This document shows positions 1,074-18,892 of a stretch of DNA of 19,096 nt, piece after piece. Each line of letters opens with the position of its first letter. The first letter of the stretch is position 1. Under the pieces are notes generated by a model. That model did not search any database. It was not told the origin of the DNA and worked only from the letters and a program-made list of their open reading frames with translations. Source of the stretch: Candidatus Woesearchaeota archaeon (GTDB taxonomy: Archaea > Nanobdellota > Nanobdellia > Pacearchaeales > GW2011-AR1); assembly GCA_964408905.1 (NCBI GenBank), contig CAYPBD010000003.1, positions 1-19,096 on the forward strand. Direction: 5' to 3'. The position numbers and the translations under genes are program-made.

Positions 1074-2648
1074 TTATTGTTGGGGTTTTTTCTTCATAGC
1101 AATTCCACCACCTATAATAGCAGCTAGAACAACTACTCCAATAATAATCCATAACCAAGTCAAATTTGTTTTTTCTGCCCCCTCTCCAGGTTCTCCTGTC
1201 TCAGATGGTTGTCCCTCTTCCCCTTCTTCCATTGCTTTTGAACTAATAGCAAAATAACTAAATGAAGTTAATTCAACATCATAGTAATAATAAGTATCAT
1301 CTTCATCTGTATAAGTAGTAGTCAATTCATTCCATTCTTCATTACTCTCATCAAATTTAAATAAAGCTATATTATCCTTATCAAGTCCATTATTAGAAAC
1401 CCAAGTTTTCTCAACTTGAATAGTTATTGTTGCTTTATCTAATTTATCCTCTAAATTTTGTGTATCAATCTTCAAATATCTATAGTTATCTCCTGTCTTT
1501 TCAGAAACCTCTGCAGGTTTAGTATCATATTTTGAAACTGTTACTTTAACATTTTGTGCTTCACTATTAACCTCAACTGCAATTTGTTTAATTCCTGCAT
1601 TTCCATCAACATTTTTAATTACAATTTCTTCTCCTGGAGTTATCTTTGGTAATAAATTTGTCTTTGTAGTAGGACCACTAGAACTACTTTTTTTCACATT
1701 TGATTCACCTGTAACTGTATAAGTATCAGTATTTGAAGCAACATTACCTGCATAATCATATCCCGTACAAGTATAGGTAAAAGTTCCAGTTAAAGCAGGA
1801 GAAGATGTTCCATCATCAGAAGTTGAAGATTGAGCATTCTTGCTTGTATTTATTCCAGAAGTGGCATCTGATCTTGTACATGAACAAGGAAAACTTTCTC
1901 CAACAACAACTGAACTTGTACAACTAGCTTGAATAGCAGGAGCAGTTGTATCTATTTCTACATATCTTCCTGTTTTATTCAGAAGAGAATTACCAGCACT
2001 ATCATTTGCATAAATAATAATCTGATGAATTCCATCTGTTGCACCAGTCAAATTCAAAGTTGTACTATTACACCAACCATTATTCGCTGAAACAGACTGG
2101 TTTGTTCCATTTATACTAAACCAACATTCATATATGGCTGAAGTAGAATTAACATCGGCAACAGAAACATTTAATGTTAACTGATCTGTATTTTTATATG
2201 CTTTATTAGTTGCTGAAGAATTTGTATATGAATTAAGAGTTATTGTTGAAGGAGAATAAATATCCATAATTATTGAAATATTACTTGCATTAAGGGCATT
2301 TGAATGAGGAACAGTAGCATTTACTCTCTGAACCATAAAAGTATAATTTGCATCTGTACTATTAGTATAAATAACCCCTGTAACAGAATCATTTTTTATA
2401 GATTTAAAGAAATTTAATCCGCCATCAACACTAATCCAAATAGTATAATTACCTGCATCTGTATCTCCTGCTGTCCAATTAATAGAAACTATACCATCTC
2501 CATCATAATAATCCGAAGTATTAAGTCCAAACATCACATGAGTAGGTGCTGCAGGAGTAACAGCAGCTGTAATAATTAAACCAATTATAATTAAAGTACT
2601 TAAAATAAAGATTCCATAAAGTAAAAATTTATTTTTATTTTCCATCAT
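1074..2648 (-). CDS. Secreted or anchored cell-surface (S-layer-like) glycoprotein with a PGF-pre-PGF-like domain and C-terminal TM anchor
   Basis: 524-aa ORF with an N-terminal signal/TM (FLLYGIFILSTLIIIGLIIT) and an S/T/N-rich, beta-rich body with many N-x-S/T sequons. The segment ATITIQVEKTWVSNNGLDKDNIALFKFDESNEEWNELTTTYTDEDDTYYYYDVELTSFSYFAISS resembles the archaeal PGF-pre-PGF domain. The C-terminal TM plus basic tail (WLWIIIGVVVLAAIIGGGIAMKKKPQQ) has no literal PGF motif. A GAGG Shine-Dalgarno-like element at 2651-2654 favours the second ATG (2645-2643). Confidence 0.7.
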   Translation of the reverse strand: MMENKNKFLLYGIFILSTLIIIGLIITAAVTPAAPTHVMFGLNTSDYYDGDGIVSINWTAGDTDAGNYTIWISVDGGLNFFKSIKNDSVTGVIYTNSTDANYTFMVQRVNATVPHSNALNASNISIIMDIYSPSTITLNSYTNSSATNKAYKNTDQLTLNVSVADVNSTSAIYECWFSINGTNQSVSANNGWCNSTTLNLTGATDGIHQIIIYANDSAGNSLLNKTGRYVEIDTTAPAIQASCTSSVVVGESFPCSCTRSDATSGINTSKNAQSSTSDDGTSSPALTGTFTYTCTGYDYAGNVASNTDTYTVTGESNVKKSSSSGPTTKTNLLPKITPGEEIVIKNVDGNAGIKQIAVEVNSEAQNVKVTVSKYDTKPAEVSEKTGDNYRYLKIDTQNLEDKLDKATITIQVEKTWVSNNGLDKDNIALFKFDESNEEWNELTTTYTDEDDTYYYYDVELTSFSYFAISSKAMEEGEEGQPSETGEPGEGAEKTNLTWLWIIIGVVVLAAIIGGGIAMKKKPQQ

Positions 2649-3235: not shown

Positions 3236-4213
3236 TTAAGCTTTATCTTTAATTCCTGCATTAGTTACCCAATAAACAGCTTCGTTATCAGGAAGATTAG
3301 GAGAATCAATTAATTTTGCAACTCTTGAACCCTGCTTTCCTCTTCGTAAATACATTCTATAAGTTGAAGCATGTCCAACAATGTTTCCTCCAATTGCAGT
3401 TGTTGGATCTCCAAACATTTGTGCAGGATTTGACATAACCTGATTAGTCACATAAATTGCAAGATTGTGTGTCTCTGCAAGTTTCATTAAATCATGCATA
3501 TATCGATTCAACTTTTGTTGTCTGTCTGCAAGTTGTCCTCGACCAGAAAACTCTGCTCTAAAATGTGCAGTTAAAGAATCTATAATCATTAATTTAATAG
3601 GTTCACCATTCTTAACCATTTCCCCAACTTTTTCCAATAATAACATTTGATGGTCAGAATTAAAAGCACGAGCAACAAAAATATTTTTCAAAACTTTTTC
3701 AGGATTTGCTCCAAGCCCTTCAGCAATTTGTTTTATTCTTGCAGGTCTAAAAGTTCCTTCTGTATCAATAAAAACACATTTTCCATTTGCTCCTCCTTTT
3801 TCAGAAGGCAGTTGTACATTTACTGCTAAAGTCAAACCAAATTGAGTCTTTCCAGAACCATATGCTCCAAAAGCTTCTGTAATTGCTCGAGACTCTATCC
3901 CTTTTCCTCCCAGAAGATTATTCAACTCTTCACTCCCCGTAGTAATATTAATAACGTTCGCTCTTTTTTCTGCATACTGCATTCCATCAACAAAACCTAA
4001 ATCTAACATTTTTCTCGCAGCCTGAATTGCTTTTCTTGCAACAGCAGCACTAACTCCAGCAGCATCTGAAATTGTAGAAGGTGAAGAAACAGCCAAAGAC
4101 ATTAAATCTAAAATTCCTGCATTTTCTAATTTAGCAGAAACAGCCGGACCAATTCCAGGCAAATCAGTTAATTCAGGTTCTTTATCAGAATTCGCATCCT
4201 TTTTTGTTGCCAT
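3236..4213 (-). CDS. radA: DNA repair and recombination protein RadA
   Basis: N-terminal HhH (LTDLPGIGPAVSAKLENAGI), Walker A (GAYGSGKTQ) and a Walker B-like MIIDSLT. The 325-aa length is typical of archaeal RadA. Confidence 0.93.
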   Translation of the reverse strand: MATKKDANSDKEPELTDLPGIGPAVSAKLENAGILDLMSLAVSSPSTISDAAGVSAAVARKAIQAARKMLDLGFVDGMQYAEKRANVINITTGSEELNNLLGGKGIESRAITEAFGAYGSGKTQFGLTLAVNVQLPSEKGGANGKCVFIDTEGTFRPARIKQIAEGLGANPEKVLKNIFVARAFNSDHQMLLLEKVGEMVKNGEPIKLMIIDSLTAHFRAEFSGRGQLADRQQKLNRYMHDLMKLAETHNLAIYVTNQVMSNPAQMFGDPTTAIGGNIVGHASTYRMYLRRGKQGSRVAKLIDSPNLPDNEAVYWVTNAGIKDKA

Positions 4214-6042: not shown

Positions 6043-6312
6043 ATGGGAACTGCAGGAATTAAAATAAAAATCATGCCTTTATCTCCAGAAGTAAATTTAG
6101 AAGAAATAAAAAAAGAATCTCAGAAATTAATTGAAGAAAAGGGCGGAAAAAATTGCAGGTTTGAAGAAGAACCAATTGCATTTGGTTTAAAAGCAATAAT
6201 AACTTTTTTTGAATGGCCTGAAGAAAATGAAGTTGAAGAATTAGAAAGTGAATTAAAAAAAATAAAAGATGTTAATTCTGTTCAAATTATAGATATGAGA
6301 AGACTCATTTAA
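6043..6312 (+). CDS. ef1b: Translation elongation factor aEF-1 beta
   Basis: 89 aa. KIKIMPLSPEVNLEEI..EEEPIAFGLKAI..VNSVQIIDMRRL matches the archaeal EF-1beta pattern and size. Confidence 0.88.
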   Translation: MGTAGIKIKIMPLSPEVNLEEIKKESQKLIEEKGGKNCRFEEEPIAFGLKAIITFFEWPEENEVEELESELKKIKDVNSVQIIDMRRLI

Positions 6313-6313
6313 A

Positions 6314-6940
6314 ATGTTATCCAAAGAACAAGCCAATCAAGTAAAAAAACAATTAATTCATCAAATCGAATCAAATTTTCCAGAAGACAAAAAGGAAATA
6401 GCAATTCAGCAAGTTGAATCTATGAGTAATGAACAACTTGAGGAATTCTTAAAACAAAATAAGTTAATAAAAAATCAACAAGGTGAACCACAACAATGCA
6501 TCTTCTGTTCAATTATTAATGGAAAAATTCCCTCATATAAAATTGACGAAAATGAAAAAGGAATTGCAATTCTCGAGATAAAACCAATCTCTTATGGACA
6601 TACAATCATAATTCCAAAAGAACATATAAAATCTGAAAAAGAACTTCCAAAAGAAGCAATAGAATTAGCACAAAAAGTTGCAAAAAAAATTAAAGAAAAA
6701 TTAAATCCAAAAGAAGTTTCTATTTCTCCCATTAATATTTTAGGACATGAAGCAATAAATGTTCTCCCAATATATGAAAATGAAAACATGAATTCTCCAC
6801 GAAAACAGATTCAGCCAGAAGAACTTGAAGAATTACAAAATAAATTACTAAAAAAGAAAAAAGAAATTAAAGAAGAACCTAAGAAAGAAATAGAAAATAT
6901 TAACGAAAAAAATACATGGTTACCAAAAAGAATTCCATAA
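6314..6940 (+). CDS. HIT-superfamily protein with an N-terminal helical extension and a degenerate histidine triad
   Basis: CIFCSIINGKIPSYKIDENEKGIAILEIKPISYGHTIIIPKEH is a typical HIT-fold N-terminal half. HEAINVLP replaces the canonical HxHxHxx motif. The start is 1 nt after the ef1b stop. Confidence 0.75.
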   Translation: MLSKEQANQVKKQLIHQIESNFPEDKKEIAIQQVESMSNEQLEEFLKQNKLIKNQQGEPQQCIFCSIINGKIPSYKIDENEKGIAILEIKPISYGHTIIIPKEHIKSEKELPKEAIELAQKVAKKIKEKLNPKEVSISPINILGHEAINVLPIYENENMNSPRKQIQPEELEELQNKLLKKKKEIKEEPKKEIENINEKNTWLPKRIP

Positions 6941-7774
6941 ATCTATCCATTTATAAAATAATATTAAAACTAAAAAACTAATTAAAAAAACAGGAGTAAA
7001 AGGGATTCCTTGTTTTATCTTAACAGTTTTGTAATTTTTTTTAATTTGTCTAATATCTTTTTTACTTAAACCATCCCAATTTGATTTAATTAGTTTTTTT
7101 CCAACCCTTAAATCCCTATAAATCCAATCTCCTTCTGTTAATTGATTTGCTTTAATTTTTTTTACCATACAAGATTCATCAACAGCTTTTGCATAAATAT
7201 ACAAATAAGGTAAAATAAAAAATATAATTCCAAAATATAATAAAAAAACTTCTGAAAATATAAAACAAAAGACAAAAAAAGCAATTCCAGCCAATACAAA
7301 AGGATAAATAATTTTCTTTTTATTTTTAAGTTGTTTATTAAATTCCTTTTTAAATTCTTTAAAATTTTTCATACTTAAAAAAATACTAATTATTAAACTA
7401 TAAAGAGCACCGAAAGAGAAGAAAATAAGAAAGAATAATCCAAAAATATTTACATTATTAAAAAAATTCTCAGAAAAAGGTAAAATAGTTCCTAAAGCAA
7501 TCATTAATTTAGCATCCCCTCCTGCAAACATTCGTCCATAATAAAGTAGATTCCCAATAACAAAAAAAATTCCAAGACCAATCAATCCTTGATAAAAAAA
7601 AGCAAAACCATTTGCATTTTGAGAAAATAAACAATAAAAAAATCTAAAGCCTAAAGCAAAAATTATTAAAGAAAAATTAAGCCAGTTCGCAACTTCTCTT
7701 TTTTTTAAATCCTGAACAACAGCAAAAATAATCCAAACTATTGCCAACACTGATAAAAAAATAATCTCATACAT
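6920..7774 (-). CDS. A24-family aspartic prepilin/preflagellin peptidase (PibD/FlaK/EppA-like)
   Basis: Polytopic membrane protein with the first catalytic Asp in VVQDLKKREVANW near the N-terminus and the second in the GxGD-type motif FAGGDAKLMIALG. The C-terminal GIPFTPVFLISF is typical of the family. Confidence 0.85.
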   Translation of the reverse strand: MYEIIFLSVLAIVWIIFAVVQDLKKREVANWLNFSLIIFALGFRFFYCLFSQNANGFAFFYQGLIGLGIFFVIGNLLYYGRMFAGGDAKLMIALGTILPFSENFFNNVNIFGLFFLIFFSFGALYSLIISIFLSMKNFKEFKKEFNKQLKNKKKIIYPFVLAGIAFFVFCFIFSEVFLLYFGIIFFILPYLYIYAKAVDESCMVKKIKANQLTEGDWIYRDLRVGKKLIKSNWDGLSKKDIRQIKKNYKTVKIKQGIPFTPVFLISFLVLILFYKWIDLWNSFW

Positions 7775-7930: not shown

Positions 7931-8353
7931 TTAAGACATAATTTTAGGAACACAGCATCTTTGTCCTCCAACAACATTTGACATAGAAGTTATATCATCT
8001 TCATTAGAAGAACATTCATTCTTTACAACTCCTTTACCCATAATACTTGTACATTCAAAACCACATTCAATTAAAGAACATTCTTCTACTCCATATTTTT
8101 CATATGCAGAAATAACTGCAAAGGTAGCACAATTTGTTTCAATTTCTGTCTGCCCATCTTTTATGGTTCTAACTTTTGTACAATAATCATATTTGCTGTT
8201 TGTTTCACATGCAGTAGCACATTGATTTACAAGAGTATTAACATTATTTGAAGCAAAAATATTCCAACCTATCACCAACCCCAATATTAAAATTACTAAC
8301 ACAATAACTACTGAAATTAATACCACACTCATTCCTTTCCTCTTTTTATTCAT
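7931..8353 (-). CDS. Prepilin-like (class III signal) Cys-rich secreted protein; start revised to ATG 8353
   Basis: The track start at 8359 is a GTG. The ATG at 8353-8351 gives MNKKRKG|MSVVLISVVIVLVILILGLVIG, matching the locus-wide leader consensus, with a TATA-like octamer 20 nt upstream. The mature part has about 12 Cys. Confidence 0.75.
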   Translation of the reverse strand: MNKKRKGMSVVLISVVIVLVILILGLVIGWNIFASNNVNTLVNQCATACETNSKYDYCTKVRTIKDGQTEIETNCATFAVISAYEKYGVEECSLIECGFECTSIMGKGVVKNECSSNEDDITSMSNVVGGQRCCVPKIMS

Positions 8354-8373
8354 ATTCACACAAAGTTATTTTA

Positions 8374-8387: not shown

Positions 8388-9080
8388 TCATTGATTCTCC
8401 TTTTTTCCAAAAGCTTTTGAAAACATCTCTGCAATCTTTCTAAGAAAATGCCTGTCTATTTTTTCCTGCTGCTTTTCTTCCTCTTCTTTCTTTTTCTTAT
8501 GAATCTCTCCCATATAAGATGATAAATAATAAATTCCAATCATCCCCACAACAATTATAAATAAAATAACAAATCTCCACACATTAGATTCTTTCCAAAA
8601 AATAAGCCATGCAAAAAATTCAATGATTGCTCTTAAAATCTTAAATTGTGCAAGAATAATTGTTAAAACAAATCCTATAACCATAGAAGTAGTAGAAGAA
8701 AAACTAGAATAATCAGTAAGAATTTCACTCATTTTTAAAAAAAGATAAAACCATAAAAGAATTATAGATAATAAAACTAAAGATAATGAATAATGTTCTC
8801 CAAATAAAACAACAAAAACAATATCTATTTTTTTAAGAAAAGAATCCATAGCAGAAACAAATCTGTTCTCTAATAAAATTTTCTTCCATTCTTCACCAAG
8901 ATAATCCCATCTTTTTTGTTCTATATCTTCTTTTATATCTTCTGCTTTTCCAATACCTTCTTCTAATTGTTCTCCGATTCCTTCTAAACCTTCTTCAAGA
9001 CCTTGAGCTTTTATAAAATATATTTGTAAAAAAAACAAAAACACAAATAAAAAAATAAACAAAAAACCTGCTTTTTTCAT
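8388..9080 (-). CDS. Polytopic membrane protein with a Sec-like signal, paralog of 9122-9772
   Basis: Signal-like MKKAGFLFIFLFVFLFFLQIYFIKAQG, an acidic segment, about 4 TM helices and a KKKKEEEEK-rich tail. It shares ILTDYSSFSSTTSMVIGFVLTIILAQFKIL with ILSNFGMFSETTAWVIGVSLSIVVANLKVI in the neighbouring gene. Confidence 0.7.
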   Translation of the reverse strand: MKKAGFLFIFLFVFLFFLQIYFIKAQGLEEGLEGIGEQLEEGIGKAEDIKEDIEQKRWDYLGEEWKKILLENRFVSAMDSFLKKIDIVFVVLFGEHYSLSLVLLSIILLWFYLFLKMSEILTDYSSFSSTTSMVIGFVLTIILAQFKILRAIIEFFAWLIFWKESNVWRFVILFIIVVGMIGIYYLSSYMGEIHKKKKEEEEKQQEKIDRHFLRKIAEMFSKAFGKKENQ

Positions 9081-9121: not shown

Positions 9122-9772
9122 CTATGGATTCTTACCACCAAAAGCATTTGATGCTTTTCTAAAGGCCTTAATAGCAGATTCAACAGCTCCAGCACCTTTT
9201 TTTACAGCTTGCGCTTTTTTCTTAATCTTTTTTTTAGTTGACCATTCTCCTAATGTTTGAGCCAAAAAGATATTTAACACTAAAAAGATAATAAAAGGAA
9301 CAATAATTCCCACCATAACAGAAAAAGCACCTACTCCAGCAATAATTCCAAAAGACCAAACTGCAACATACATTATTACTTTTAGGTTTGCTACAACAAT
9401 TGATAAAGAAACTCCTATAACCCAAGCAGTTGTCTCAGAAAACATTCCAAAATTAGAAAGTATATCTCCAAAGGTAAAACAAAACATCACAAATAAAGCA
9501 AGTATTACAATTGATGCACTAATAGATCCCACTTCATTAATTAAAAATTGAGGAACTCCTCCAGCAATATAATTAAAAAAATTTAGTGCATCCCAATTTC
9601 CTTCCCATTTCTCATTTGCTATATCTCCAAAACGTTCATATTCTATATCTTTTATTGAAGAAGTTTTTTCTTGTTTGAAATTTTGTATAATAATTATTCC
9701 AACAATAATTAAAACAATTATAAGAAATATTTTAGCTATTCCTAATATTGCCCCTTTTTTATTTTTTATCAT
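9122..9772 (-). CDS. Prepilin-leader-bearing polytopic membrane protein; start revised to ATG 9772
   Basis: The track start at 9778 is a TTG. The ATG at 9772-9770 gives MIKNKKG|AILGIAKIFLIIVLIIVGIIII. Three to four further TM helices and a basic tail (KKKIKKKAQAVKKGAG..FGGKNP) follow. It is a paralog of 8388-9080. Confidence 0.72.
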   Translation of the reverse strand: MIKNKKGAILGIAKIFLIIVLIIVGIIIIQNFKQEKTSSIKDIEYERFGDIANEKWEGNWDALNFFNYIAGGVPQFLINEVGSISASIVILALFVMFCFTFGDILSNFGMFSETTAWVIGVSLSIVVANLKVIMYVAVWSFGIIAGVGAFSVMVGIIVPFIIFLVLNIFLAQTLGEWSTKKKIKKKAQAVKKGAGAVESAIKAFRKASNAFGGKNP

Positions 9773-9794
9773 TTTCAAATCAAAAACTTTTATA

Positions 9795-9828: not shown

Positions 9829-10290
9829 TTACTCTGCAATAAGCAAAGGATTTTCTTTTGAAAGCCCCCATTCATCTTCACCCTGTCCATCAACATAACA
9901 AGGTCTTCCATTAACTAATACTTCATCTTTAAGAGTTTGACATTGTTCCTTTGCCAACCTATCTACTTTAATTGAATCACATTCTTCACCTAATTTTTCA
10001 AACTCAGCATAATTTTCTAAATATTCACAATTTGCATATTGTTTTGTTCCTGAAATTTCAACTTTCTGAAATAAATCACAATAACTAGTCTTTAAATTTA
10101 CTTCCGGAGAAGCATAACTTCCACATGCCTGTGCAGCAATCTCTACACTAGAAAACTTTTCAAAAATTTCTCCGATTGTTCCAAAAGCACCAGAGAAAAA
10201 AAGAATTATAATAACAGCAGCAACTACCATTACAATTAAAGGAATAAACCATTTATCGAGTTGTCCTTTTTTATCCATCCTCTTTTTCAT
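9829..10290 (-). CDS. Prepilin-like Cys-containing secreted protein, paralog of 7931-8353; start revised to ATG 10290
   Basis: The track ORF starts at a TTG (10371) inside the upstream gene. The internal ATG at 10290-10288 gives MKKRMDKKG|QLDKWFIPLIVMVVAAVIIILFF, and TTTATAAA sits 21 nt upstream. Its Cys spacing (YC-x16-NC-x15-EEC) parallels the 7931 protein. Confidence 0.75.
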   Translation of the reverse strand: MKKRMDKKGQLDKWFIPLIVMVVAAVIIILFFSGAFGTIGEIFEKFSSVEIAAQACGSYASPEVNLKTSYCDLFQKVEISGTKQYANCEYLENYAEFEKLGEECDSIKVDRLAKEQCQTLKDEVLVNGRPCYVDGQGEDEWGLSKENPLLIAE

Positions 10291-10311
10291 ATTTAAATTA
10301 TGATTAGATAA

Positions 10312-10319
10312 TTTATAAA
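10312..10319 (-). promoter_or_regulatory. TATA-box candidate (TTTATAAA), 21-nt spacer to ATG 10290
   Basis: Exact octamer in the gap between the stop at 10325 and ATG 10290. Confidence 0.45.
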
Positions 10320-10324
10320 TGTTT

Positions 10325-11140
10325 TTACATAGGAACAAAACTAAATTGAAGATTATCAAATTTCCCATCAATTAAAAATCTTTTTTTGCTTACCAAAGTA
10401 ACAAGAAAATATTTTTCACCATTAGTTTTTTCTTTTTCTATAACACTAACATTAAAATTAATTAAATCTCCATAACAATCTTCCATATCTTTAACATTTT
10501 TACATTTCTCTTTAACATCATAAATTTCATAAAAACTATTTAACCCAATTTTTTTCAAATTAAATTTCAAGGAAATTTCTGGAATATAAGTCAAATTAAT
10601 ATTTTCTACAAAACTATTCATTTCTAAATTATCAATTGTTATTATCAAAATATCTTTATTCACAACAACCTCAAAATTTTCATTCAAAATAATTTGTTTT
10701 AAATTATTTAGATAATCTTCTTCAAAATTATAATTTCCAAATTCATTTTCAAAATTCTCAATAAACCTATTTCTAAAATTTTCATCAAGTCTGTTATTAA
10801 TATTTTTAAATTCAATTTCTTTACCAGAAGTTATTGGATTATTAATATAATCACTATTCTCAACAAATTCATTATAAGTTTCTACAATTGCTTTTTCTTC
10901 TGCCTGATTAAGATAAAATTCAATTAAATCTTGTTTGGAATAAAAATTATTTATAAATTGGGCATTTGAAATTTTTGCTTTAACTTTGCCAGAACTAATA
11001 ACAAGACTAAAAAGAGTTACAGAAGCAACAAGCAAAACTAAAACAACAAGTAAAAGTACTGATAGATCTCCTTTTCTATTTTTGGGGAAAAAATTAAATT
11101 GTAAATATTTTGGCTTTTTTTTATTTTGTACAAATTTCAT
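10325..11140 (-). CDS. Prepilin-like protein, 271 aa, long basic leader
   Basis: ..FFPKNRKG|DLSVLLLVVLVLLVASVTLFSLVI followed by an N/E/F-rich soluble domain. Its ATG overlaps the stop of the upstream amidase gene by 1 nt (TAATG). Confidence 0.65.
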   Translation of the reverse strand: MKFVQNKKKPKYLQFNFFPKNRKGDLSVLLLVVLVLLVASVTLFSLVISSGKVKAKISNAQFINNFYSKQDLIEFYLNQAEEKAIVETYNEFVENSDYINNPITSGKEIEFKNINNRLDENFRNRFIENFENEFGNYNFEEDYLNNLKQIILNENFEVVVNKDILIITIDNLEMNSFVENINLTYIPEISLKFNLKKIGLNSFYEIYDVKEKCKNVKDMEDCYGDLINFNVSVIEKEKTNGEKYFLVTLVSKKRFLIDGKFDNLQFSFVPM

Positions 11141-12363
11141 TATTTTTCAACCCTCAATTTTAATCTTCTCATAAACTCTTCCCAAGGAAAAGCAGCACCA
11201 GGGTCATGTTTATTATTTGTGATTTCATCATGACCAATAATGTGATTCCTATCAACAGGAATATTATTTCTTTCAACAATTCCTGCAACTAATTTAACTA
11301 AAGAATCTATTTGTTCTTTTGTATAATTCTGCCAATGTTTAACTATTGTATCAGCAGGATGTATAAGACCTACTCCATCTGGACAATAAGGCTTAATTTT
11401 CTCTGCCCCACATGCAGAACCCCAATTTATAATCTCAATTCCAATTCCCCTTTGATTAAAACCTTTAATACAACAAAGTCCTTTATTACATCCTTGTATT
11501 AATTTTCCTGAATCTGTAATACACTCAGAATCACATTCAGGCAATGCATTTTCACCAACTCCACATCCAGCATGTTGTGCAGAATTCTTTTCCCATTCTC
11601 CTGTAACATCAGAAACATCCTCTCTCAAAATACATTCCTCAAGTCGCCATGCATCAAGCACGCACTCAGCAACTTTTCCATCTCTCTGTAAAATATATTG
11701 AACACTTAAATCTTTTCCTTTCAAAGCAGACTCCACCCCTTTATAAGAACCTCCTCCTGCAGTATAATGAATAACAACAGTGTCTTTTTCCAATCCCTGA
11801 AGTGTTATTTCTTCTTTTTTTTCTGTCACTTCTTCTTCACTAATATACAACCCAACAGGAACTTCTTTCCCATCTAAAAAAAGAATTGTCTTAGGAAGAT
11901 TATACAAAACATTATCATAATCATAAACAGATACATCTTTATTTATCAAAATATAATCTCCAAATAAATCAGAAGAATCATAATCCACAGTAAACAAATA
12001 TGAGTTTATTTCTTCTTTATCTAAAATATTCTCAACCTGTTCTTTTATTTTTTCTTTAGCATCTTTATCATCTAACACTTTCCATTCTAAAATCAAATCT
12101 TTTATTGTCTCTCCCTCATCTGTAGGAGTATTAAGAACTCTGACAAGATTTCTCTGACTTTGTAAATCTTCTAAATTACTTTCTTCATCAAGAGTAATAA
12201 CATTTTTTTGAAAAGAAACAACTTTGCTTCCACTTAATATTATTGCTATAACAACCATTCCAGATATAACAAAAAATATCATAATAAATGATGAAACCCA
12301 TGTCAAAGTCTTGCCTAATGTTGCTTTTTTAGATTTCAAAAAAATTAATTTATTTATTTTCAT
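11140..12363 (-). CDS. N-terminally anchored (prepilin-like?) N-acetylmuramoyl-L-alanine amidase (Amidase_2/AmpD/PGRP-type) with a Cys-rich insert; start revised to ATG 12363
   Basis: The track start at 12375 is a TTG. The ATG at 12363 lies one nucleotide downstream of the upstream gene's stop codon. The N-terminus is MKINKLIFLKSKKATLGKTLTWVSSFIMIFFVISGMVVIAIIL. The C-terminal domain has TVVIHYTAGG..LSVQYILQRDGKV..AQHAG..NQRGIGIEIINWG..YTKEQIDSLVKLV..IIGHDEITNNKHDPGAAFPWEEF, the Amidase_2 motif series including the AmpD-like GH..K.DPG..FPW. Confidence 0.8.
   Translation of the reverse strand: MKINKLIFLKSKKATLGKTLTWVSSFIMIFFVISGMVVIAIILSGSKVVSFQKNVITLDEESNLEDLQSQRNLVRVLNTPTDEGETIKDLILEWKVLDDKDAKEKIKEQVENILDKEEINSYLFTVDYDSSDLFGDYILINKDVSVYDYDNVLYNLPKTILFLDGKEVPVGLYISEEEVTEKKEEITLQGLEKDTVVIHYTAGGGSYKGVESALKGKDLSVQYILQRDGKVAECVLDAWRLEECILREDVSDVTGEWEKNSAQHAGCGVGENALPECDSECITDSGKLIQGCNKGLCCIKGFNQRGIGIEIINWGSACGAEKIKPYCPDGVGLIHPADTIVKHWQNYTKEQIDSLVKLVAGIVERNNIPVDRNHIIGHDEITNNKHDPGAAFPWEEFMRRLKLRVEK
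11167..11784 (-). other. Amidase_2 catalytic domain region of the 11140-12363 CDS, with the Cys-rich insert at about 11413-11574
   Basis: Zn-ligand candidates are His in VIHYT, His in IIGHDE and Asp in KHDPG. The insert HAGCGVGENALPECDSECITDSGKLIQGCNKGLCCIKGFNQRG carries 7 Cys between the conserved HAG and GIGIE blocks. Confidence 0.7.
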
Positions 12364-12364
12364 T

Positions 12365-12889
12365 TTACCTAACAACAGAAACTTTCCTGCCTGCCTGATT
12401 CGATGCAGCTAAAATTTCAAGTGTAACCTCTTCAATTTTATTGTCTTTGTAATATAAAGCAACTTCTCTTTCTCTAACACATTTTGGATAATATTTCGCA
12501 GTCACTCCTTCTTCTCCCTCCTGAATCTCACAATCTTTCTCAAATGAAAAATCACCTCCTTCAACTTCCTTCATCAAATAATCTGTTTCATTAAAAATCT
12601 GAATATTAAAATAAAAATCACTTCCTTCTCCAAAAATTTCTTTATTTAATTGACATTTTTCAAAAACATCAAAATCTTTTTCAGTCAATTCATCAATTAA
12701 AAAACCTTGCTTTATAACACAACTAACAATTTTTTCATAAATAATATTTGCCTCTACTTCTCTTATGTCAATACCAACAGAATGATAAGCCAAAACAGAT
12801 AAAACCACTCCTGCCCCAATAACTGCAAGTGCAAAAATCCACCAAATAGAAAGTAATTTTTCTCCTCCCTTTTTATTTAAAAATATCAT
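12365..12889 (-). CDS. Prepilin-like protein, 174 aa
   Basis: MIFLNKKG|GEKLLSIWWIFALAVIGAGVVLSVLA with 4 Cys in the soluble part. There is an ATGA start/stop overlap with the upstream gene. Confidence 0.7.
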   Translation of the reverse strand: MIFLNKKGGEKLLSIWWIFALAVIGAGVVLSVLAYHSVGIDIREVEANIIYEKIVSCVIKQGFLIDELTEKDFDVFEKCQLNKEIFGEGSDFYFNIQIFNETDYLMKEVEGGDFSFEKDCEIQEGEEGVTAKYYPKCVREREVALYYKDNKIEEVTLEILAASNQAGRKVSVVR

Positions 12890-13293
12890 GCTTCTATATT
12901 AGGTTTATTTATTATAATAATATAATTCCCATCAAGAGATTCATCAGGATATGCATTTACATCAACATCACTAATAAAAGAATAAGAATATCCTCCTCTT
13001 TCCCCCAATTTTACTGTCACAACATTATCCTTAATTTTCACAATATCTTCAAAACTTATTTTATTTTCTTCAGCAAGTTCCATTCCTTCTTTCATATTTA
13101 ATTTAATTTCCATTACAGGTTCAGCAGAATCAATCAATAATGCAATTTGTTTTGCATATGCCTGTTCATAAACGATTACACCTCCAGAAGACCTAAAAAC
13201 AAATATCAACAAAGCAGAAATAAAAATTATATTTACAATAATAAAAATAACAGTAGGGTAAATTACATCTGTTGCTGCCCCTTTTTTGTTCAT
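12886..13293 (-). CDS. Prepilin-like protein, 135 aa
   Basis: MNKKG|AATDVIYPTVIFIIVNIIFISALLIFVF followed by a small beta-rich domain. A TATA-like octamer lies 22 nt upstream. Confidence 0.72.
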   Translation of the reverse strand: MNKKGAATDVIYPTVIFIIVNIIFISALLIFVFRSSGGVIVYEQAYAKQIALLIDSAEPVMEIKLNMKEGMELAEENKISFEDIVKIKDNVVTVKLGERGGYSYSFISDVDVNAYPDESLDGNYIIIINKPNIEA

Positions 13294-13334: not shown

Positions 13335-14432
13335 CTAAGGAATACTTTCAATCACAGAACAATAACTTTGAATATCCTTTAAGTTATAATTAACTGCCCT
13401 AACAACACTACATCCATTACGTGCTTCTTCTCCAACAGAAATATCTCCACAATAACCTGCAGTCACTCCCCTATTATAAGCTACATTTAATTGTTGAATC
13501 CCTACTCCTACAATCGCTACAGCAAGGGTTATTAATCCCCCCTTAACGCCAATTGTTTTTAATCCTTTTACAGTTAATGAAGCTCCTGCAAAATGAGCGC
13601 CTACTGCTCCAATTCCAAGGACACCTTTTCCAATATTCAAAAGAGAATCCCCATGACCAGGAGCAGAAATCTGCATAAACAAAACAGCCATCTCATCTTT
13701 TGGTTCTTTCAAAGGATCTTCCCATTCATCCAAATTAGAAGAATCAATTGTAGTAGAATCTTCTTCACCAACTACAGGTATTTCGCCCTCTTTAGATTTT
13801 TCTTCTTCAATATCTTTCACTTCAATAGAATCAATATCAGATGCACTGAATTGACCTCCTTCTCCTGATAAATAAGCATAATAAGAAATATTCCCATTTG
13901 GAATTTTATGTGTTCTCATATATTCTAAAACATTTATATCATCTAAATCCAAATCCAACTTTTCATCAAATGCTATTCTTGAACATATTACACAAGTAGG
14001 GTATACTCCTCCAATTCCAAAAGTATCTGCCCAGTATTGAGAAAACAAAGATACTTTTCCTTCACCCATTGTTGTCCAACAATCCACAATTTCCTGGGAA
14101 ATTAATTTTTCAACATCTTTCACTTCACCAACTTTAGCTTTTGTAATTCCTTTTACATTCTTAAAATCTTCTTCACATTTCCCTCCAATAATTCCAGAAG
14201 TTACACAAATTTTAGAGGTCTTACACTTTAAAGGAACCAAACCCTGTGTTTCTGAAGGAACTGTTGCTCTTAAAACCACAGATTGATGACAGACCTCTCT
14301 GTCAATACGTCCTGTCCAGCTAATTTGAGAAAAAACAAGAAGAACAATTGCAAAACCAGCAATTAATAAAATTAATGTAACCAATTGTTGAGCAGTAATT
14401 GCTCCTTTTTTATTTATATTATTTTTTATCAT
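13335..14432 (-). CDS. Prepilin-like protein, 365 aa, with a Cys-rich domain, acidic linker and Gly-rich hydrophobic C-terminal module
   Basis: MIKNNINKKG|AITAQQLVTLILLIAGFAIVLLVF with 10 Cys overall. The acidic linker is DIEEEKSKEGEIPVVGEEDSTTIDSSNLDEWEDPLKEPKDE. The segment SLLNIGKGVLGIGAVGAHFAGASLTVKGLKTIGVKGGLITLAVAIVGVGIQQL follows. Confidence 0.75.
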   Translation of the reverse strand: MIKNNINKKGAITAQQLVTLILLIAGFAIVLLVFSQISWTGRIDREVCHQSVVLRATVPSETQGLVPLKCKTSKICVTSGIIGGKCEEDFKNVKGITKAKVGEVKDVEKLISQEIVDCWTTMGEGKVSLFSQYWADTFGIGGVYPTCVICSRIAFDEKLDLDLDDINVLEYMRTHKIPNGNISYYAYLSGEGGQFSASDIDSIEVKDIEEEKSKEGEIPVVGEEDSTTIDSSNLDEWEDPLKEPKDEMAVLFMQISAPGHGDSLLNIGKGVLGIGAVGAHFAGASLTVKGLKTIGVKGGLITLAVAIVGVGIQQLNVAYNRGVTAGYCGDISVGEEARNGCSVVRAVNYNLKDIQSYCSVIESIP

Positions 14433-14552: not shown

Positions 14553-15521
14553 TTATTCACAAATATAAAATCTTATATATCCTCCTATAGCTCTTTCTTT
14601 ATTAATTTGATTAAAACATATTTGTTTTTCTTCAAGAACAGAACAAGATTTTGTATCTCCTTCTGAAATGAAAATTGGATTATTAAACCAGATTGAATCA
14701 AATGTAGATAAAATTATTTTTCCTCCTTTTATTTCTTCTTTATTAATTAAATCTCTCAAATAATTTTGGAATTCTCCTTCAAGAACTTTTTTCAAATCTT
14801 TATTAACTTTTATTTCAGAACAATCACCAAGCAATTTCATAAAAAGCGAACTAACTTTTGTTTTCTCTCCTTCAAACTCAACTTCTTTATCTAAAAAATC
14901 AGTCAAAATATCAGAATCAATTTCTATATCAGAGATAGAAATATTATTTCCTTCTTTTTTAAAAGATAATTTTTTTGGAATTTCATAAAAAGAAATCCAG
15001 TTAACAAATGAAATTGTTGTTCCTTTAGGTAAAGGATTTTCCCTTCCTCCAAAATAAGCATCTCTTATTTTAATTCTATCATCAACATTCTTACAAATTC
15101 CTTCTTTTTCACATTTATCAAGTCCGCCAGTAGGATAGCCTGCTAATTCTTCTTTTGTATAAAAATAATCTCCATAAGGTGCACCATCCACTGTTGTAAT
15201 CTGCGCTATTAAATCTATTCCAGGACAAAGACACAAACAATTCTCTCCTTTGCATTGTGTAGGCATATTTTCTTCTCCATTATAAGAAACCAAATACCAT
15301 TCTTTAGGTGATGTAATAAGAAAATCTCCTTTTTCTCCATCTTCTAAACTATTAATTTCAGCAATAATCTGATTAAGATTTTCTTTTGCCTGTTCAACTT
15401 TTGTCTTTTGAATTGCAATCCCATACAAACTAAAACCCAAATAAAAAAGAAGACCTATACAAATAACTGCAATAATCATCTTCAATGCTTCAGATGCTAA
15501 AATTCCCCTTTTATTTTTCAT
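14553..15521 (-). CDS. Prepilin-like protein, 322 aa, Cys-rich
   Basis: MKNKRG|ILASEALKMIIAVICIGLLFYLGF, with Glu at +5 as in bacterial type IV pilins. Clustered Cys include TQCKGENCLCLCPG and KCEKEGICKN. The start overlaps the upstream gene by 11 nt. Confidence 0.75.
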   Translation of the reverse strand: MKNKRGILASEALKMIIAVICIGLLFYLGFSLYGIAIQKTKVEQAKENLNQIIAEINSLEDGEKGDFLITSPKEWYLVSYNGEENMPTQCKGENCLCLCPGIDLIAQITTVDGAPYGDYFYTKEELAGYPTGGLDKCEKEGICKNVDDRIKIRDAYFGGRENPLPKGTTISFVNWISFYEIPKKLSFKKEGNNISISDIEIDSDILTDFLDKEVEFEGEKTKVSSLFMKLLGDCSEIKVNKDLKKVLEGEFQNYLRDLINKEEIKGGKIILSTFDSIWFNNPIFISEGDTKSCSVLEEKQICFNQINKERAIGGYIRFYICE

Positions 15522-16515
15522 TTAACAACTCCTTAATTTCTTCATAATCTACTCTTAAATTTGACTCATAATAAGGTTCATAACCTCTCCTAAATTTCTC
15601 AGACACATCATTAATTATTGCAGTTGTAGTAGGTTCTTCAAAAGTGCTCATTCTTTCTGCAGTCAATTGTTCATCATCCAACCAAACAGAACCATCAGGA
15701 TAAATTCTTCCTAACCATTGAATATCAATAGCCAAAACACCTTCAACAGCGCCTTTAATCTCTAAATATTCTTTTCCATCAAGAACATATAAAAATTTAA
15801 CTTTGCTTTTGACCAGCAAAATAATATAAGGAGCAAAATCAATTTTCAAACCTTTATCAATTCCAAAAAAACCTCTTTTTACTTTTTCCAATCTTAACAA
15901 TTCTGTTTTTAGAATAATTGGATTTTCAGGAAAACCATAATCAATTTTTATCTCTTCTTCTTCATTTTTACATAAAAGATTATTTCCTGCATAAAAAGAA
16001 TTATTAAGTTTAATAAAATCAGAAATATCTCCCCCCAAATCAAATCTAATCTTTTGATAATCCTCAGAATCTAAATCAAATTCAGAATCAGAATTAAAAA
16101 AACCAGAATTTAAAGATATAACTCCTCCCTTAACTTCAGCTACTTTAATGTCTTTTTCTAAAAGCTTAACAAATCCTTCCTTTCTATCACCACTCCAATA
16201 CAAATTTGTTTTTTCATTATCCATAAAAATATATTGTTTACTTCCTACTCCAGAAACCCCTCCTTCTGGAATATTAATTTTTCCTATCATCACAGGACAT
16301 AAGTCTTTAATCTCTTCGTCACTTAATTTACTTACATCAATTTCAGTATCATTTTCAGGAACAGAATATCCTGGAAGATTTCTTAAATAACTATTAATAT
16401 CCACCTTAAATAAAAACATTGCAACAACAGCAATTACAAAAACAGCTATTATAATTGTAATTAATGTTTTATTTGCTATCCCTTTTTTATCAAAAACAAT
16501 TTTTTGTTTAATCAT
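15511..16515 (-). CDS. Prepilin-like protein, 334 aa
   Basis: MIKQKIVFDKKG|IANKTLITIIIAVFVIAVVAMFLF followed by a large soluble domain. There is an ATGA overlap with the mini-pilin gene upstream. Confidence 0.72.
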   Translation of the reverse strand: MIKQKIVFDKKGIANKTLITIIIAVFVIAVVAMFLFKVDINSYLRNLPGYSVPENDTEIDVSKLSDEEIKDLCPVMIGKINIPEGGVSGVGSKQYIFMDNEKTNLYWSGDRKEGFVKLLEKDIKVAEVKGGVISLNSGFFNSDSEFDLDSEDYQKIRFDLGGDISDFIKLNNSFYAGNNLLCKNEEEEIKIDYGFPENPIILKTELLRLEKVKRGFFGIDKGLKIDFAPYIILLVKSKVKFLYVLDGKEYLEIKGAVEGVLAIDIQWLGRIYPDGSVWLDDEQLTAERMSTFEEPTTTAIINDVSEKFRRGYEPYYESNLRVDYEEIKELLNEK

Positions 16516-16682
16516 CCTCTAAACCTAAATAGATTTTTTACAAATTCAATAGCACCACTCATTTTTCCTGAAAGAATCATATATCCTACAAACATTATTG
16601 CAACAATAATTAGGGCAAGCATCCATCCTTTAAACTCTTCTATTGCTACTCCTTTTTTATTTTTTAACAAACCTCTTTTCAT
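16512..16682 (-). CDS. Flp-like mini-pilin, 56 aa (not in the ORF track); candidate major filament subunit
   Basis: The ATG at 16682-16680 gives MKRGLLKNKKG|VAIEEFKGWMLALIIVAIMFVGYMILSGKMSGAIEFVKNLFRFRG, ending with TGA at 16514-16512 (ATGA overlap with the next gene). Its size and the G|xxIEEF motif resemble the Flp G|xxxxEY motif. It has its own TATA-like octamer 21 nt upstream. The 67-aa plus-strand track ORF 16504-16707 is its shadow. Confidence 0.65.
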   Translation of the reverse strand: MKRGLLKNKKGVAIEEFKGWMLALIIVAIMFVGYMILSGKMSGAIEFVKNLFRFRG

Positions 16683-16711: not shown

Positions 16712-16717
16712 TGTTTT

Positions 16718-18892
16718 CTAACTTGTTAATCCCCCCAATACTAGAGAAGTTAATAAAAACAAAGCCAAAGTTGCTATAAGAGCTGTGATAAAATAAAGAG
16801 TAATTCCTGCCATCAAATTTTTTCCTATTTTATTTGTTTTCTCAAGTTTATCTTCACCAGAATCAATAGTTACCAAAGAACCTGTTAAAATAAAAATTAT
16901 TTCAATTATATAAATTCCAATAGCAATTTGCAAATAATAAGGAGGAATCATATTTATTACTGGAAATATTCCTGTTATGGCTGTCACATCACCTAAACCA
17001 GTAATCTCTCCTACTCCTTCAAGTTGTGATAAAATATCTAATTTACTTAAAATAGAAGTTATCATTACAGCTAAACCAACAACAACACCAGAAAGTAAAG
17101 GTGCCAAAAAAGTCATATTACTTTTCATATCAGAGGCAATCTCTGCTAGCATATCTTTTAATCTATTAGTAATCTTCTGAATATTTTTTACATATTCTGA
17201 AATACTCATAAGACCCATAGCAGCAATTCTCAATCCTTTTTTTGCAGATTCAATAAGAATTCTCATGCTTGTTGCAATTAATTCAGAAGGATAATATATA
17301 ATTGCTCCTCGTCGGGGATCAAAGATAGCTTTCTCAACACTCATTCCCATTTGTCTTATATTATAATTCACTCTTCTGAAAAAATCTTCTGTTTCCAAAC
17401 CCCTAGATGATTCAGCAACTTTTCCAAAAATAAGTTCAGGAGGCATACCATTCCCAATTCTATTTCCTAACTGAAATAAAGAATTATTAAATTCTTTTTC
17501 AAGTTGTTTTGTCTTAATTCTTTCCTTAATCAAATCTTTAGTTCTTTCTTTAAATGAAAATGAAAAAAATAAAGCAATACTAAGAGGAATAAACATACTT
17601 AAAATCAAAGCAAATATTCCAAAGGGGCCAACAAAACCTCCTCCTGATTCTTTAAAATCAAAAATATATCCTTCACCTAAAAAACTTAAACCAATTTGCG
17701 AAAAAGTATAATCTTTTTGCAAACCTAATAATTCTGGAACAGGAGTATATTGAAAAATTAAAGGTAATAATCCAATTAGAAAAAAAGGTAAACAAATCAA
17801 AAAAGCATGTAGATAAGGTTTCCTACTTTGATATTTATGATAAAAAGGATTTTTTTCTAATAAACTTTTTTCACCATATCCTCCAGGCCTTAATAATAAA
17901 ATTTTATCTGTAAGATAAAAGACAAAAAAAGGAACAATCAAATTAAACAAAAGAAAAAGATGATACCATTTTAATAATCCTCCAAGCATTGCAGAAGCTA
18001 AAGGGATTAATGCCAATCCCAAAGTTGGCAAAACAACTCCAAGCATATAAACATTGGTCAAAGGACTTCTTACATTGTGTGTAAATTTTAACATCTTATC
18101 ATAAACACCATCAAGAACAACTTGTAAGGATTTCTCTAAAGTCGCAATTCTCCTGTCATTGCTTGGTTCAAATAAACTACTCTCAATCAAATGAAAAGAC
18201 TCGATAAATTCTGTAGAATAATCTCTCCATGTCTCAAGATAATTATCAAGACTCTCTTTTATTGTAGAAAATTTTCCAACAGAAACATCATAAAATACTT
18301 TTTTTAAATCAAGTGCAAGAGGAGGTTGCAAATGATCTGAAGCAAAAGCAACTGCCTTTTCCAAATTAGGAGTGTGTCGCATATAAACAACAATATATAA
18401 AATCGCAGGCACCATTTGTGAAGATGCCTTAAGTCTCCATTTATTTGCTAATCTTGCAGGATATCCATTAACAAAATAAAATAAGAATAAAGACAATATA
18501 ATTATTAAAAAGAAAAATAAGACAGGAAAATTAGAAAGTCCTCCTCTAATTAAAGTTATTGCAACAGAAATTAATAACCCAAGGAAAAAAACACTTACAA
18601 AAGTCATAATACTCAAAGTAATAGGTTGCCAAGGTTCTAAATCAAGATGAGAAATTTCTAGTTGCTTTTTAATTTTAGCTTCATCTTTTTTAGAAATCTT
18701 CAGTTTTATTATATTACCTAAACTACGGCACCATCTCTCATATCCTGTCAATTCAGGAGCCATCTCTTGTTTAAATTTAACATACTCTCGGCTATAATTA
18801 ACATCTTTAACACCTTTTGTCTTGATTTGCTTTTCAATTCTTGCACTATGTTTTCTAAGAATATCTTTTATATTTGGTTTTCTATTCACCAT
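16718..18892 (-). CDS. Type IV filament platform membrane protein (FlaJ/TadC/PilC-like, two T2SS-F-like repeats)
   Basis: 724 aa and polytopic. Two cytoplasmic helical modules each precede TM bundles: LEKAVAFASDHLQPPLALDLKKVFYDVSVGKFSTIKESLDNYLETW and ELIFGKVAESSRGLETEDFFRRVNYNIRQMGMSVEKAIFDPRRGAIIYYPSELIATSMRILIESAKKG. This fits a fused archaeal GspF-family architecture, and the gene sits at the head of the pilin cluster. Confidence 0.65.
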   Translation of the reverse strand: MVNRKPNIKDILRKHSARIEKQIKTKGVKDVNYSREYVKFKQEMAPELTGYERWCRSLGNIIKLKISKKDEAKIKKQLEISHLDLEPWQPITLSIMTFVSVFFLGLLISVAITLIRGGLSNFPVLFFFLIIILSLFLFYFVNGYPARLANKWRLKASSQMVPAILYIVVYMRHTPNLEKAVAFASDHLQPPLALDLKKVFYDVSVGKFSTIKESLDNYLETWRDYSTEFIESFHLIESSLFEPSNDRRIATLEKSLQVVLDGVYDKMLKFTHNVRSPLTNVYMLGVVLPTLGLALIPLASAMLGGLLKWYHLFLLFNLIVPFFVFYLTDKILLLRPGGYGEKSLLEKNPFYHKYQSRKPYLHAFLICLPFFLIGLLPLIFQYTPVPELLGLQKDYTFSQIGLSFLGEGYIFDFKESGGGFVGPFGIFALILSMFIPLSIALFFSFSFKERTKDLIKERIKTKQLEKEFNNSLFQLGNRIGNGMPPELIFGKVAESSRGLETEDFFRRVNYNIRQMGMSVEKAIFDPRRGAIIYYPSELIATSMRILIESAKKGLRIAAMGLMSISEYVKNIQKITNRLKDMLAEIASDMKSNMTFLAPLLSGVVVGLAVMITSILSKLDILSQLEGVGEITGLGDVTAITGIFPVINMIPPYYLQIAIGIYIIEIIFILTGSLVTIDSGEDKLEKTNKIGKNLMAGITLYFITALIATLALFLLTSLVLGGLTS

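Follow-up and report, generated by a model that had tools for sequence, protein, structure and literature searches.

The window analysed here, a 19,096-nt stretch of a Candidatus Woesearchaeota genome (contig CAYPBD010000003.1, assembly GCA_964408905.1), carries on its minus strand a small open reading frame (ORF) of 56 codons that is a real gene, widely conserved in DPANN archaea, a group of tiny symbionts. Judged by its sequence and those of its relatives, its product is probably a prepilin from a hitherto unnamed family, found in these archaea, whose members are very short type IV pilin-like proteins, and we have good confidence in the overall picture of a conserved pilin-like gene with a class III signal, equipped with its own leaderless promoter and heading a type IV filament cluster; on the further step, that the protein is the major subunit of the filament, our judgement is evenly balanced. 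Short helix-only type IV pilins are already known, and the family of ~45-residue pilin-like proteins described here is matched by no Pfam or NCBIfam model. It provides a candidate filament subunit for a gene cluster that is very widespread in DPANN, and a fresh case with which to compare the origin of helix-only pili (Flp/Tad, Epd). Members of the DPANN are believed to rely on physical contact with their hosts' cells. Pilus-like host contacts of DPANN have been reported from microscopy (PMC9938205), and a census of archaeal type IV pili identified no cognate pilins in nanoarchaeal genomes for one ATPase clade (PMC4858521).

A small ORF conserved across DPANN archaea

On re-checking, the ORF, its coordinates and its 56-amino-acid (aa) translation were identical to those given by the initial annotation, and the antisense ORF of 67 aa and the ATGA overlap with the next gene, a 334-aa ORF, were also as described (Table 1). 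Upstream, a spacer of 35 nt separates the gene from the end of a 724-aa ORF at 16718. The label "unannotated" is apt for the function, the gene having neither a name nor a Pfam domain, but not for the ORF itself: the exact frame has already been called as a gene by the JGI, NCBI and Logan pipelines, and the exact protein is called on several JGI and Logan contigs; it or a close sequence occurs in the JGI metagenomes 3300031624, 3300031698, 3300031357 and 3300031563. The translation reads MKRGLLKNKKG/VAIEEFKGWMLALIIVAIMFVGYMIL, where the slash, here and below, marks the predicted cleavage site.

Taken alone, an ORF of this size means little. The window has a G+C content of ~28% and contains many spurious ORFs of 40–90 codons; from this composition we estimate that ~5 ATG-initiated ORFs of at least 56 codons are expected by chance. 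As neither the small ORF nor the TATA-like octamer upstream of it is, by itself, beyond chance, the case rests on comparative evidence. A profile search against 1.84 billion representative proteins recovered 218 clusters (50% identity) at E ≤ 0.001, all of 43–99 aa. The five close homologues are 71–79% identical to the window protein, and in five diverged close loci, the ratio of nonsynonymous to synonymous substitution rates (dN/dS) of the small gene is 0.19–0.66; in its C-terminal 24 codons, the per-site nonsynonymous differences (pN, 0.02–0.08) lie well under the synonymous ones (pS, 0.07–0.39). Independently of the small ORF, we fetched 80 loci from a one-genome-per-species collection via the 724-aa protein and searched their six-frame ORFs with a hidden Markov model (HMM) of the small family. 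A member was found in 70 of the 80 species loci, or 70 of the 76 assessable ones, four of the ten misses having <250 nt of downstream sequence. All but one of the members (69/70) share the strand of the 724-aa gene, and the median distance behind it is 47 nt. The genomes with homologues of the 724-aa protein are labelled Pacearchaeota, Woesearchaeota or Nanoarchaeota, all DPANN. Two further products of the window, read as RadA and EF-1beta, are archaeal markers.

In the six other assessable loci (L038, L050, L052, L056, L059 and L089), unrelated genes stand behind the 724-aa gene and no small-family member is present in the sequence covered; the cluster can thus be split, and the pilin string of those six genomes presumably lies elsewhere. 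A search of the one-genome-per-species collection with peptide patterns of the small family returned 57 pattern matches and no relative confirmed by tblastn, probably due to the shortness of the ORF.

What lifts the ORF and its octamer above chance is the combination of the family, the dN/dS ratios, the presence across loci and the fixed spacing of the octamer. The initial annotation had staked its claim on conservation in related genomes, and by the clusters, the loci (70/76) and a dN/dS below one, the ORF is conserved. Although chance alone would produce frames of such length in this window, and although the antisense frame is open in four of the five close loci, the reading that the ORF has arisen by chance, or that the antisense ORF is the true gene, is effectively refuted: the small gene is conserved family-wide, its length changes are in-frame and its dN/dS is below one, its promoter and start context are conserved on the minus strand, and the antisense frame of L008 contains a stop codon. 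Length cut-offs applied to small ORFs conceal what is a core component of this gene cluster.

A prepilin-type signal and a predicted mature part of steady length

The N terminus of the family is organised as that of a prepilin. In 145 of the 155 family members (~94%), [KR][GA] stands ahead of the hydrophobic helix; position −1 relative to the predicted cut is then G (103 members) or A (42), position −2 is K or R, −3 is K and −4 is N. Several of the exceptions retain G or A at −1 without K or R at −2, and a few members begin only past the predicted cut, which we read as start codons called too far downstream. Among the 155 members, the leader ranges from 4 to 54 aa and the predicted mature part is mostly 44–48 aa long (42–45 aa in the sample of 70 species loci), and all the length variation lies N-terminal to the cleavage motif. 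A variable leader ahead of a part of steady length is what one would expect of a leader that is cut off and a mature part that alone is under constraint.

The small-family HMM also matches, in register, the N termini of eight larger window proteins, of 334, 322, 135, 365, 174, 153, 142 and 271 aa, and neither the 724-aa protein nor the A24 prepilin peptidase encoded in the window is matched in its transmembrane helices. In signal type, the small protein thus agrees with the larger pilin-like proteins encoded downstream, the genes of which also have a "KKG"-type start, and the class III-type N terminus proposed by the initial annotation is supported. As in type IV pilin-like proteins that bear this signal, a basic leader ending in [KR]-[GA] is followed by a hydrophobic helix of ~20 residues, and we infer that the small protein is a prepilin cleaved after G11. 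The Gly context of the cut, to which the initial annotation had also pointed, is found in the window protein, but all five close homologues have Ala at −1, a residue still acceptable to A24 peptidases. The helix directly follows the cut, at +1 (G/IISEYLPWLLIA...), in 54 of the 70 species; in the subfamily of the window protein, residues +1 to +8 are more polar than usual.

A probable dedicated promoter

The TATA-like octamer TTTATTAA lies exactly where the initial annotation placed it, 21 nt ahead of the ATG, and is itself preceded by an A-rich hexamer, AAAACA, which by the known structure of archaeal promoters would be the B recognition element (BRE). In the window, TTTATWAA occurs 29 times against 18 ± 5 expected; as this count alone is not significant, only the positional conservation of the octamer is informative. 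That conservation is near complete: the end of the octamer is 21 nt from the ATG in 61 loci and 22 nt in eight, that is, in 69 of the 70 species loci, the octamer reads exactly TTTATTAA in 65 of the 70, and the A three bases upstream of it is 95% conserved. In the five diverged close loci, a 14-nt element, AAAACATTTATTAA, is identical while the 21-nt spacer downstream of it varies, and the element is retained in L009 and L010 despite a different upstream gene. In archaea, the centre of a TATA box lies ~26 nt upstream of the site where transcription begins, and the geometry of octamer and ATG implies a leaderless mRNA. The conserved BRE/TATA arrangement thus bears out the promoter claimed for the gene and points to a dedicated one with a leaderless transcript, the start site being deduced from the spacing.

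The same spacing recurs elsewhere in the window. TTTAT[AT]AA is found ~21–22 nt before the start, without a Shine–Dalgarno-like sequence, upstream of 4213 (RadA), 4987, 7774 (the A24 peptidase), 9778 and others, which suggests that this genome's transcripts are as a rule leaderless. Apparent exceptions with 5′ leaders are the 724-aa gene, with a TATA box ~41 nt upstream, and a 524-aa gene, with one at ~39 nt and with AAGAGG. An Rfam scan of the window found no RNA family.

The gene cluster and the presumed assembly machinery

The small gene stands, as the initial annotation stated, at the head of a pilin string and directly behind a large, conserved membrane-protein gene. From that 724-aa gene down to ~7931, the minus strand carries a string of genes, and most of the products begin with a basic leader (KKG, KRG or KKA) followed by a hydrophobic helix. 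One of them, of 411 aa, carries an N-acetylmuramoyl-L-alanine amidase domain (PF01510, Amidase_2; E 3.5e-20, residues 198–393) behind its class III-like N terminus; a 405-aa counterpart is present in L010, and the fusion is otherwise rare (2/80 loci). That an archaeon should have a domain for cleaving peptidoglycan attached to a pilin-like anchor is a hint that the protein acts on the walls of bacterial cells.

As platform of the type IV filament machine we presume the 724-aa protein. It has ~9 hydrophobic segments and two soluble regions of ~135–150 aa, more than 2960 homologues, of which the best 120 are 73–100% identical (the other 119 of these at 73–88%), and 491 matches in the one-genome-per-species collection; JGI names a few of the homologues TadB. 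We found no match to it in Pfam, NCBIfam or PDB sequences, and no T2SSF when its halves were searched against Pfam at E ≤ 10. An AlphaFold2 model reached a mean predicted local distance difference test score (pLDDT) of 44, too poor for a structure search, and hhalign detected no internal repeat between the N- and C-terminal halves, at a very low alignment diversity (an effective number of sequences, Neff, of 1.5). The platform designation is drawn from context, by position and topology; if it is correct, the protein is too divergent for the T2SSF model.

In related loci, an ATPase of the T2SSE family (PF00437; ~760 aa) is encoded ~2–5 kb upstream on the same strand, the window ending before it. 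Across the 80 loci, many of which are incomplete, tblastn found a homologue of this ATPase in 67 and one of the A24 peptidase in 48, on the same strand in 47. The best solved relatives of the ATPase of a related locus are Archaeoglobus GspE2 (afGspE; 2OAP, 3e-29) and the Tad ATPase CpaF (4e-24), ahead of the archaellum ATPase FlaI (4.5e-13). The window's A24 peptidase (PF01478, E 3.6e-11), the presumed processing enzyme, also has a weak Arc_PepC match; read directly, its sequence shows an Asp within VVQDLKK and a GGD within FAGGDAKL, both standing where we take the two catalytic Asp motifs of A24 peptidases to be expected.

Predicted shape and conserved residues

An AlphaFold2 model of the small protein, built with 133 family sequences, has a pLDDT of 76.8 and predicts a disordered leader, a helix at residues 10–37, a break at 38–39, at a conserved S-G-K turn, and a second helix at 40–54. 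The latter is amphipathic, with a hydrophobic moment of 0.41 against 0.11 for the membrane helix, and forms the most conserved part of the protein; among close relatives, GYMILSGKMSGAIE[YF]VKNLFRFRG is almost invariant. At the other end, the main subfamily (54 of the 70 species) has the pattern G/hh[SA][ED][YF]L[PIA]W, which puts an acidic residue at +4, an aromatic one (Tyr or Phe) at +5, Trp at +8 and, in most cases, Pro at +7. The acidic and aromatic residues after the cut, on which the initial annotation had laid weight, therefore receive a mixed verdict: the aromatic residue of the window protein, F17, is Leu in all five close homologues, but an acidic-aromatic pair is present in the main subfamily. 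Foldseek found no match for the model in the PDB, a search that is uninformative for a two-helix peptide, and a PDB sequence-profile search with the family profile returned only hydrophobic-helix noise (SecE, P14; E ≥ 0.04).

Comparison with known pilins

The initial annotation likened the protein to bacterial Flp pilins, and the likeness is one of architecture, not of detectable descent. The small protein has no match to PF04964 at E ≤ 0.1, nor at E ≤ 1 on rescanning, and in a scan of 133 members, Flp_Fap is not among the 25 families matched by most of them; as a positive control, PF04964 was present in each of the 120 retrieved PilA relatives (53–102 aa). With hhalign, the small family aligned to the Flp alignment with a probability of 9.6% and a score of 17.7, at the level of the reversed-sequence controls (15.5 and 16.9). 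Membership of the Flp family is thus not upheld. Flp/Tad pilins are helix-only, 40–60 residues long and marked by the motif G/xxxxEYG, and the mature PilA of Caulobacter crescentus has 45 residues (PMC10710030); its sequence was checked against PDB 8U1K. As predicted for the small protein, PilA is a short prepilin cut after Gly, with an all-helical mature form of 45 aa that lacks a globular domain, and the two are loosely alike in an acidic-aromatic pair, soon after the cut, followed by Gly or Pro. As size and architecture match but membership fails, the small protein plausibly works like an Flp pilin without being one by profile.

Set against G/xxxxEYG, the window protein reads G/VAIEEFKG (E at +5, F at +6, G at +8) and the main subfamily G/IISEYLPW; the pair falls at +4/+5, with Pro at +7, in most small-family members and at +5/+6, with Gly7, in Flp; the motifs are alike but out of register. 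The Gly-Lys turn and basic amphipathic C-terminal helix of the small family ("IEYIKNLFRFGR" or "LIDxIKNLF") have no Flp counterpart. Unlike Flp/Tad systems, this one belongs to an archaeal host without an outer membrane, and no secretin or Rcp genes were seen in the window. The ATPase of the related locus is closer to CpaF of the Tad system than to FlaI.

Among archaeal pilins, the nearest precedent is EpdE (MMP1685), the proven major pilin of Methanococcus maripaludis. It has 74 aa, 62 of them mature; it needs Gln at +1 for processing by EppA, is N-glycosylated and has neither an aromatic residue at +6 nor the Flp motif (PMC3875500). Epd pilins of arCOG06620 have no globular domain, as Tad pilins (bioRxiv 10.64898/2026.04.22.720090). 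EpdE and the short Epd pilins resemble the small family in being archaeal, very short and free of a globular domain, and in having a K-G cut, a predicted one in the small family, and an acidic residue near +5. Compared with EpdE by its description, however, the small family has Gln at +1 in 17 of 145 members, an N-glycosylation sequon in one of 70 and an aromatic residue in most; and whereas the epdE gene lies away from its platform gene, the small gene almost always adjoins the 724-aa gene. The window's A24 peptidase is likewise short (284 aa) next to the "much larger" EppA type of the literature. On these features, an Epd-type assignment is not supported for the window protein, which has Val at +1, no sequon and, at E ≤ 1, no match to DUF361 or class III signal models of Pfam.

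A further short, helix-only pilin is PilA-N of Geobacter sulfurreducens, the partner of which is encoded directly downstream (PMC10710030). PilA-N keeps Phe1 and Pro22 of type IVa pilins and needs PilA-C as its globular domain, whereas the genes downstream of the small gene encode hydrophobic N-terminal helices of their own and are thus themselves pilin-like. The sole Pfam match of the small protein at E ≤ 1 is TrbC/VirB2 (PF04956), at E 0.012 and 16.3 bits against a cut-off of 27.9. Both are small helical pilins in appearance; we nonetheless rejected this candidate, as the match is below the cut-off, covers the hydrophobic helix only and recurs in nine of 133 members among many matches to unrelated families. 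The context is also wrong, with a T2SSE ATPase and an A24 peptidase and with no genes of a type IV secretion system seen in the window or the inspected related loci.

A leaderless second small family

In 54 of the 65 species loci that could be assessed for it, though not in the window, a second small ORF of 48–57 aa follows directly behind the small pilin gene, with a gap of −4 to +10 nt (for example, L013, 12340-12532; L025, the same record as L009, ~12754-12909; L010, 12780-12947). Its consensus, M(A)ELTIxQLIKIILG...FFKNYVIDFFKNL, has neither a leader nor a K-G site, and hhalign pairs this family with the first one's mature part at a probability of 94.8% (E 5e-8), compared with 8% when the sequence is reversed. 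By its sequence, the second ORF looks like a pilin-like protein that would not need a prepilin peptidase, and the filament shaft would thus have two or more candidates in most genomes.

In loci of the window's type (L019, L023, L028, L033, L048, L074 and L079, with small genes of the subfamily "...GAIEYIKNLFRFGR"), the position of the second ORF is held by a protein of 78–557 aa, mostly of at least 250 aa and of 334 aa in the window. The N terminus of the 334-aa protein is similar to the module of the second ORF, with a transmembrane helix and "FKVDINSYLRNL", and the large protein looks like a second small ORF fused to a large C-terminal domain.

Proposed role and alternatives

The leaderless start, cleavage, polymerisation and major-subunit status that we infer for the small protein can be combined into a single course of events. 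Transcription would start from the dedicated BRE/TATA promoter abutting the stop codon of the 724-aa gene, giving a leaderless mRNA that reads into the downstream pilin-like genes. The 56-aa product would insert into the membrane with its basic leader, MKRGLLKNKKG, in the cytoplasm, and the A24 peptidase would cut after G11 to release a 45-residue protein made up of the acidic VAIEEFKG, a hydrophobic helix of ~20 residues, the SGK turn and a basic amphipathic helix of 15 residues (GAIEFVKNLFRFRG). The T2SSE ATPase and the 724-aa protein would polymerise the mature protein into a thin filament without a globular domain, of which it would probably form the bulk, and the larger downstream KKG-proteins, including the one with the amidase domain, would serve as minor or tip subunits.

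Several observations weigh against this scheme. No pilin model matches the small protein, whether the protein is searched in Pfam and NCBIfam, its profile in PDB sequences or its model with Foldseek, and the identity of the platform comes from context. The stretch after the cut is, in the window's subfamily, unusually polar for a pilus core (E15, E16, K18); the C terminus, expected to be exposed on the surface, is the most conserved part, which would also fit a protein–protein contact within a membrane complex. Most related loci also encode the leaderless paralogue, a second candidate for the shaft. The small protein could be a true class III pilin-like protein and still not be the shaft, acting as a minor or priming pilin or as a helix-only core in need of a separate partner; the bulk or outer layer could then come from the leaderless paralogue, from the 334-aa protein or from a pilin whose gene lies elsewhere. 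Such a division of labour would agree with the paralogue lying directly downstream in most loci and, in window-type loci, with the large protein, which begins with the same module and is coupled in translation by ATGA, and it has precedents in Geobacter PilA-N/PilA-C (PMC10710030) and in M. maripaludis, where the major pilin is encoded outside the pilus (epd) locus (PMC3875500). We consider it credible but unlikely: the small gene is the most consistent small gene of the cluster, comes first in the string and has a near-invariant promoter of its own, and, as Tad pili demonstrate, a filament can be built from a helix of 45 residues by itself (PMC10710030).

The tight linkage to the 724-aa gene, the conservation of the C-terminal amphipathic helix and the lack of a matching pilin model could also be explained by an uncleaved, single-pass membrane protein that serves the 724-aa protein or the assembly complex as a small accessory subunit and the basic N terminus of which merely sets the topology by the positive-inside rule. 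A topology signal, however, needs no fixed G or A, yet 145 of 155 members have one after K or R and several keep it even without K or R at −2; nor would it confine all the length variation to the region ahead of the motif. The motif is also common to ~10 larger proteins of the cluster, beside an A24 peptidase, and the dedicated promoter added to read-through would suggest a copy number above that of a stoichiometric partner, all of which makes an uncleaved subunit very improbable. Returning to the filament reading, a bolder version would make the small family and its leaderless paralogue together the shaft of a minimal type IV filament free of globular domains in DPANN episymbionts, the closest archaeal counterpart of Flp and possibly a true relative. 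It draws on the 45-residue size, the acidic-aromatic-Gly/Pro motif and the CpaF-like ATPase, and we give it a rather low chance. If true, it would lend the proposal that Tad pili arose in archaea a concrete model from that domain and suggest a host-attachment filament with enzyme-bearing minor pilins such as the amidase fusion.

Other features of the window

Table 1. Coordinates of the small gene, its promoter and the other features of the window; HMM, residues matched by the small-family model; homologue counts refer to the 80 species loci
Feature	Position	Strand	Basis or remark
Small prepilin-like gene, 56 aa	16512..16682	-	ATG start; ORF and translation
Predicted leader, aa 1-11	16650-16682	-	
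Predicted mature part, 45 aa	16515-16649	-	
Stop codon TGA of the small gene	16512-16514	-	
Antisense ORF, 67 aa	16504..16707	+	
TATA box TTTATTAA	16704-16711	-	21 nt separate box from ATG
BRE-like A-rich hexamer AAAACA	16712..16717	-	Between 724-aa gene stop codon and TATA box
724-aa polytopic membrane protein, presumed platform	16718..18892	-	Position, topology
334-aa pilin-like protein	15511..16515	-	N terminus KKG, transmembrane helix, "FKVDINSYLRNLPGYS"; HMM 7-35
322-aa pilin-like protein (MKNKRG/ILASEALK..., Glu at +5)	14553..15521	-	HMM 1-34; homologue in 59/80 loci
365-aa pilin-like protein (..NKKG/AITAQQLV..)	13335..14432	-	HMM 4-34; homologue in 64/80 loci
135-aa pilin-like protein (MNKKG/AATDV..)	12886..13293	-	HMM 1-31; homologue in 58/80 loci
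174-aa pilin-like protein (..NKKG/GEKLL..)	12365..12889	-	HMM 2-29; homologue in 53/80 loci
411-aa amidase fusion, class III-like N terminus (..KSKKA/TLGKTLTW and transmembrane helix)	11140..12375	-	PF01510
271-aa pilin-like protein (..KNRKG/DLSVLLLV..)	10325..11140	-	Weak HMM match, 21-53
~153-aa pilin-like protein (MKKRMDKKG/QLDKW..)	9829..10290	-	HMM 28-64 of the 180-aa listing
218-aa multi-pass membrane protein (MKMIKNKKG/AILG), Lys-rich C-terminal tail	9122-9778	-	Inside pilin string
230-aa multi-pass membrane protein, Lys-rich C-terminal tail	8388-9080	-	Inside pilin string
142-aa Cys-rich pilin-like protein (..KKRKG/MSVVLISV..)	7931..8359	-	HMM 3-29
A24 prepilin peptidase, 284 aa, presumed processing enzyme	6920..7774	-	PF01478
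EF-1beta	6043-6312		Read from translation
RadA	3236-4213		Read from translation

Two of the listed starts in the string are probably too far upstream: the TTG at 10371 (9829-10371), where an internal ATG gives MKKRMDKKG... (~153 aa) and where a related contig has a 151-aa gene as positional counterpart, and the GTG at 8359, where an internal ATG gives MNKKRKG... The two multi-pass membrane proteins inside the string, of 230 and 218 aa, had no family match. Beyond the string, the 524-aa gene mentioned above (1074-2648, minus strand) encodes a protein rich in Ser, Thr and Asn, with a hydrophobic segment at the N terminus, numerous N-x-S/T sequons and a transmembrane anchor at the C terminus, possibly a surface-layer (S-layer) protein or a surface adhesin.

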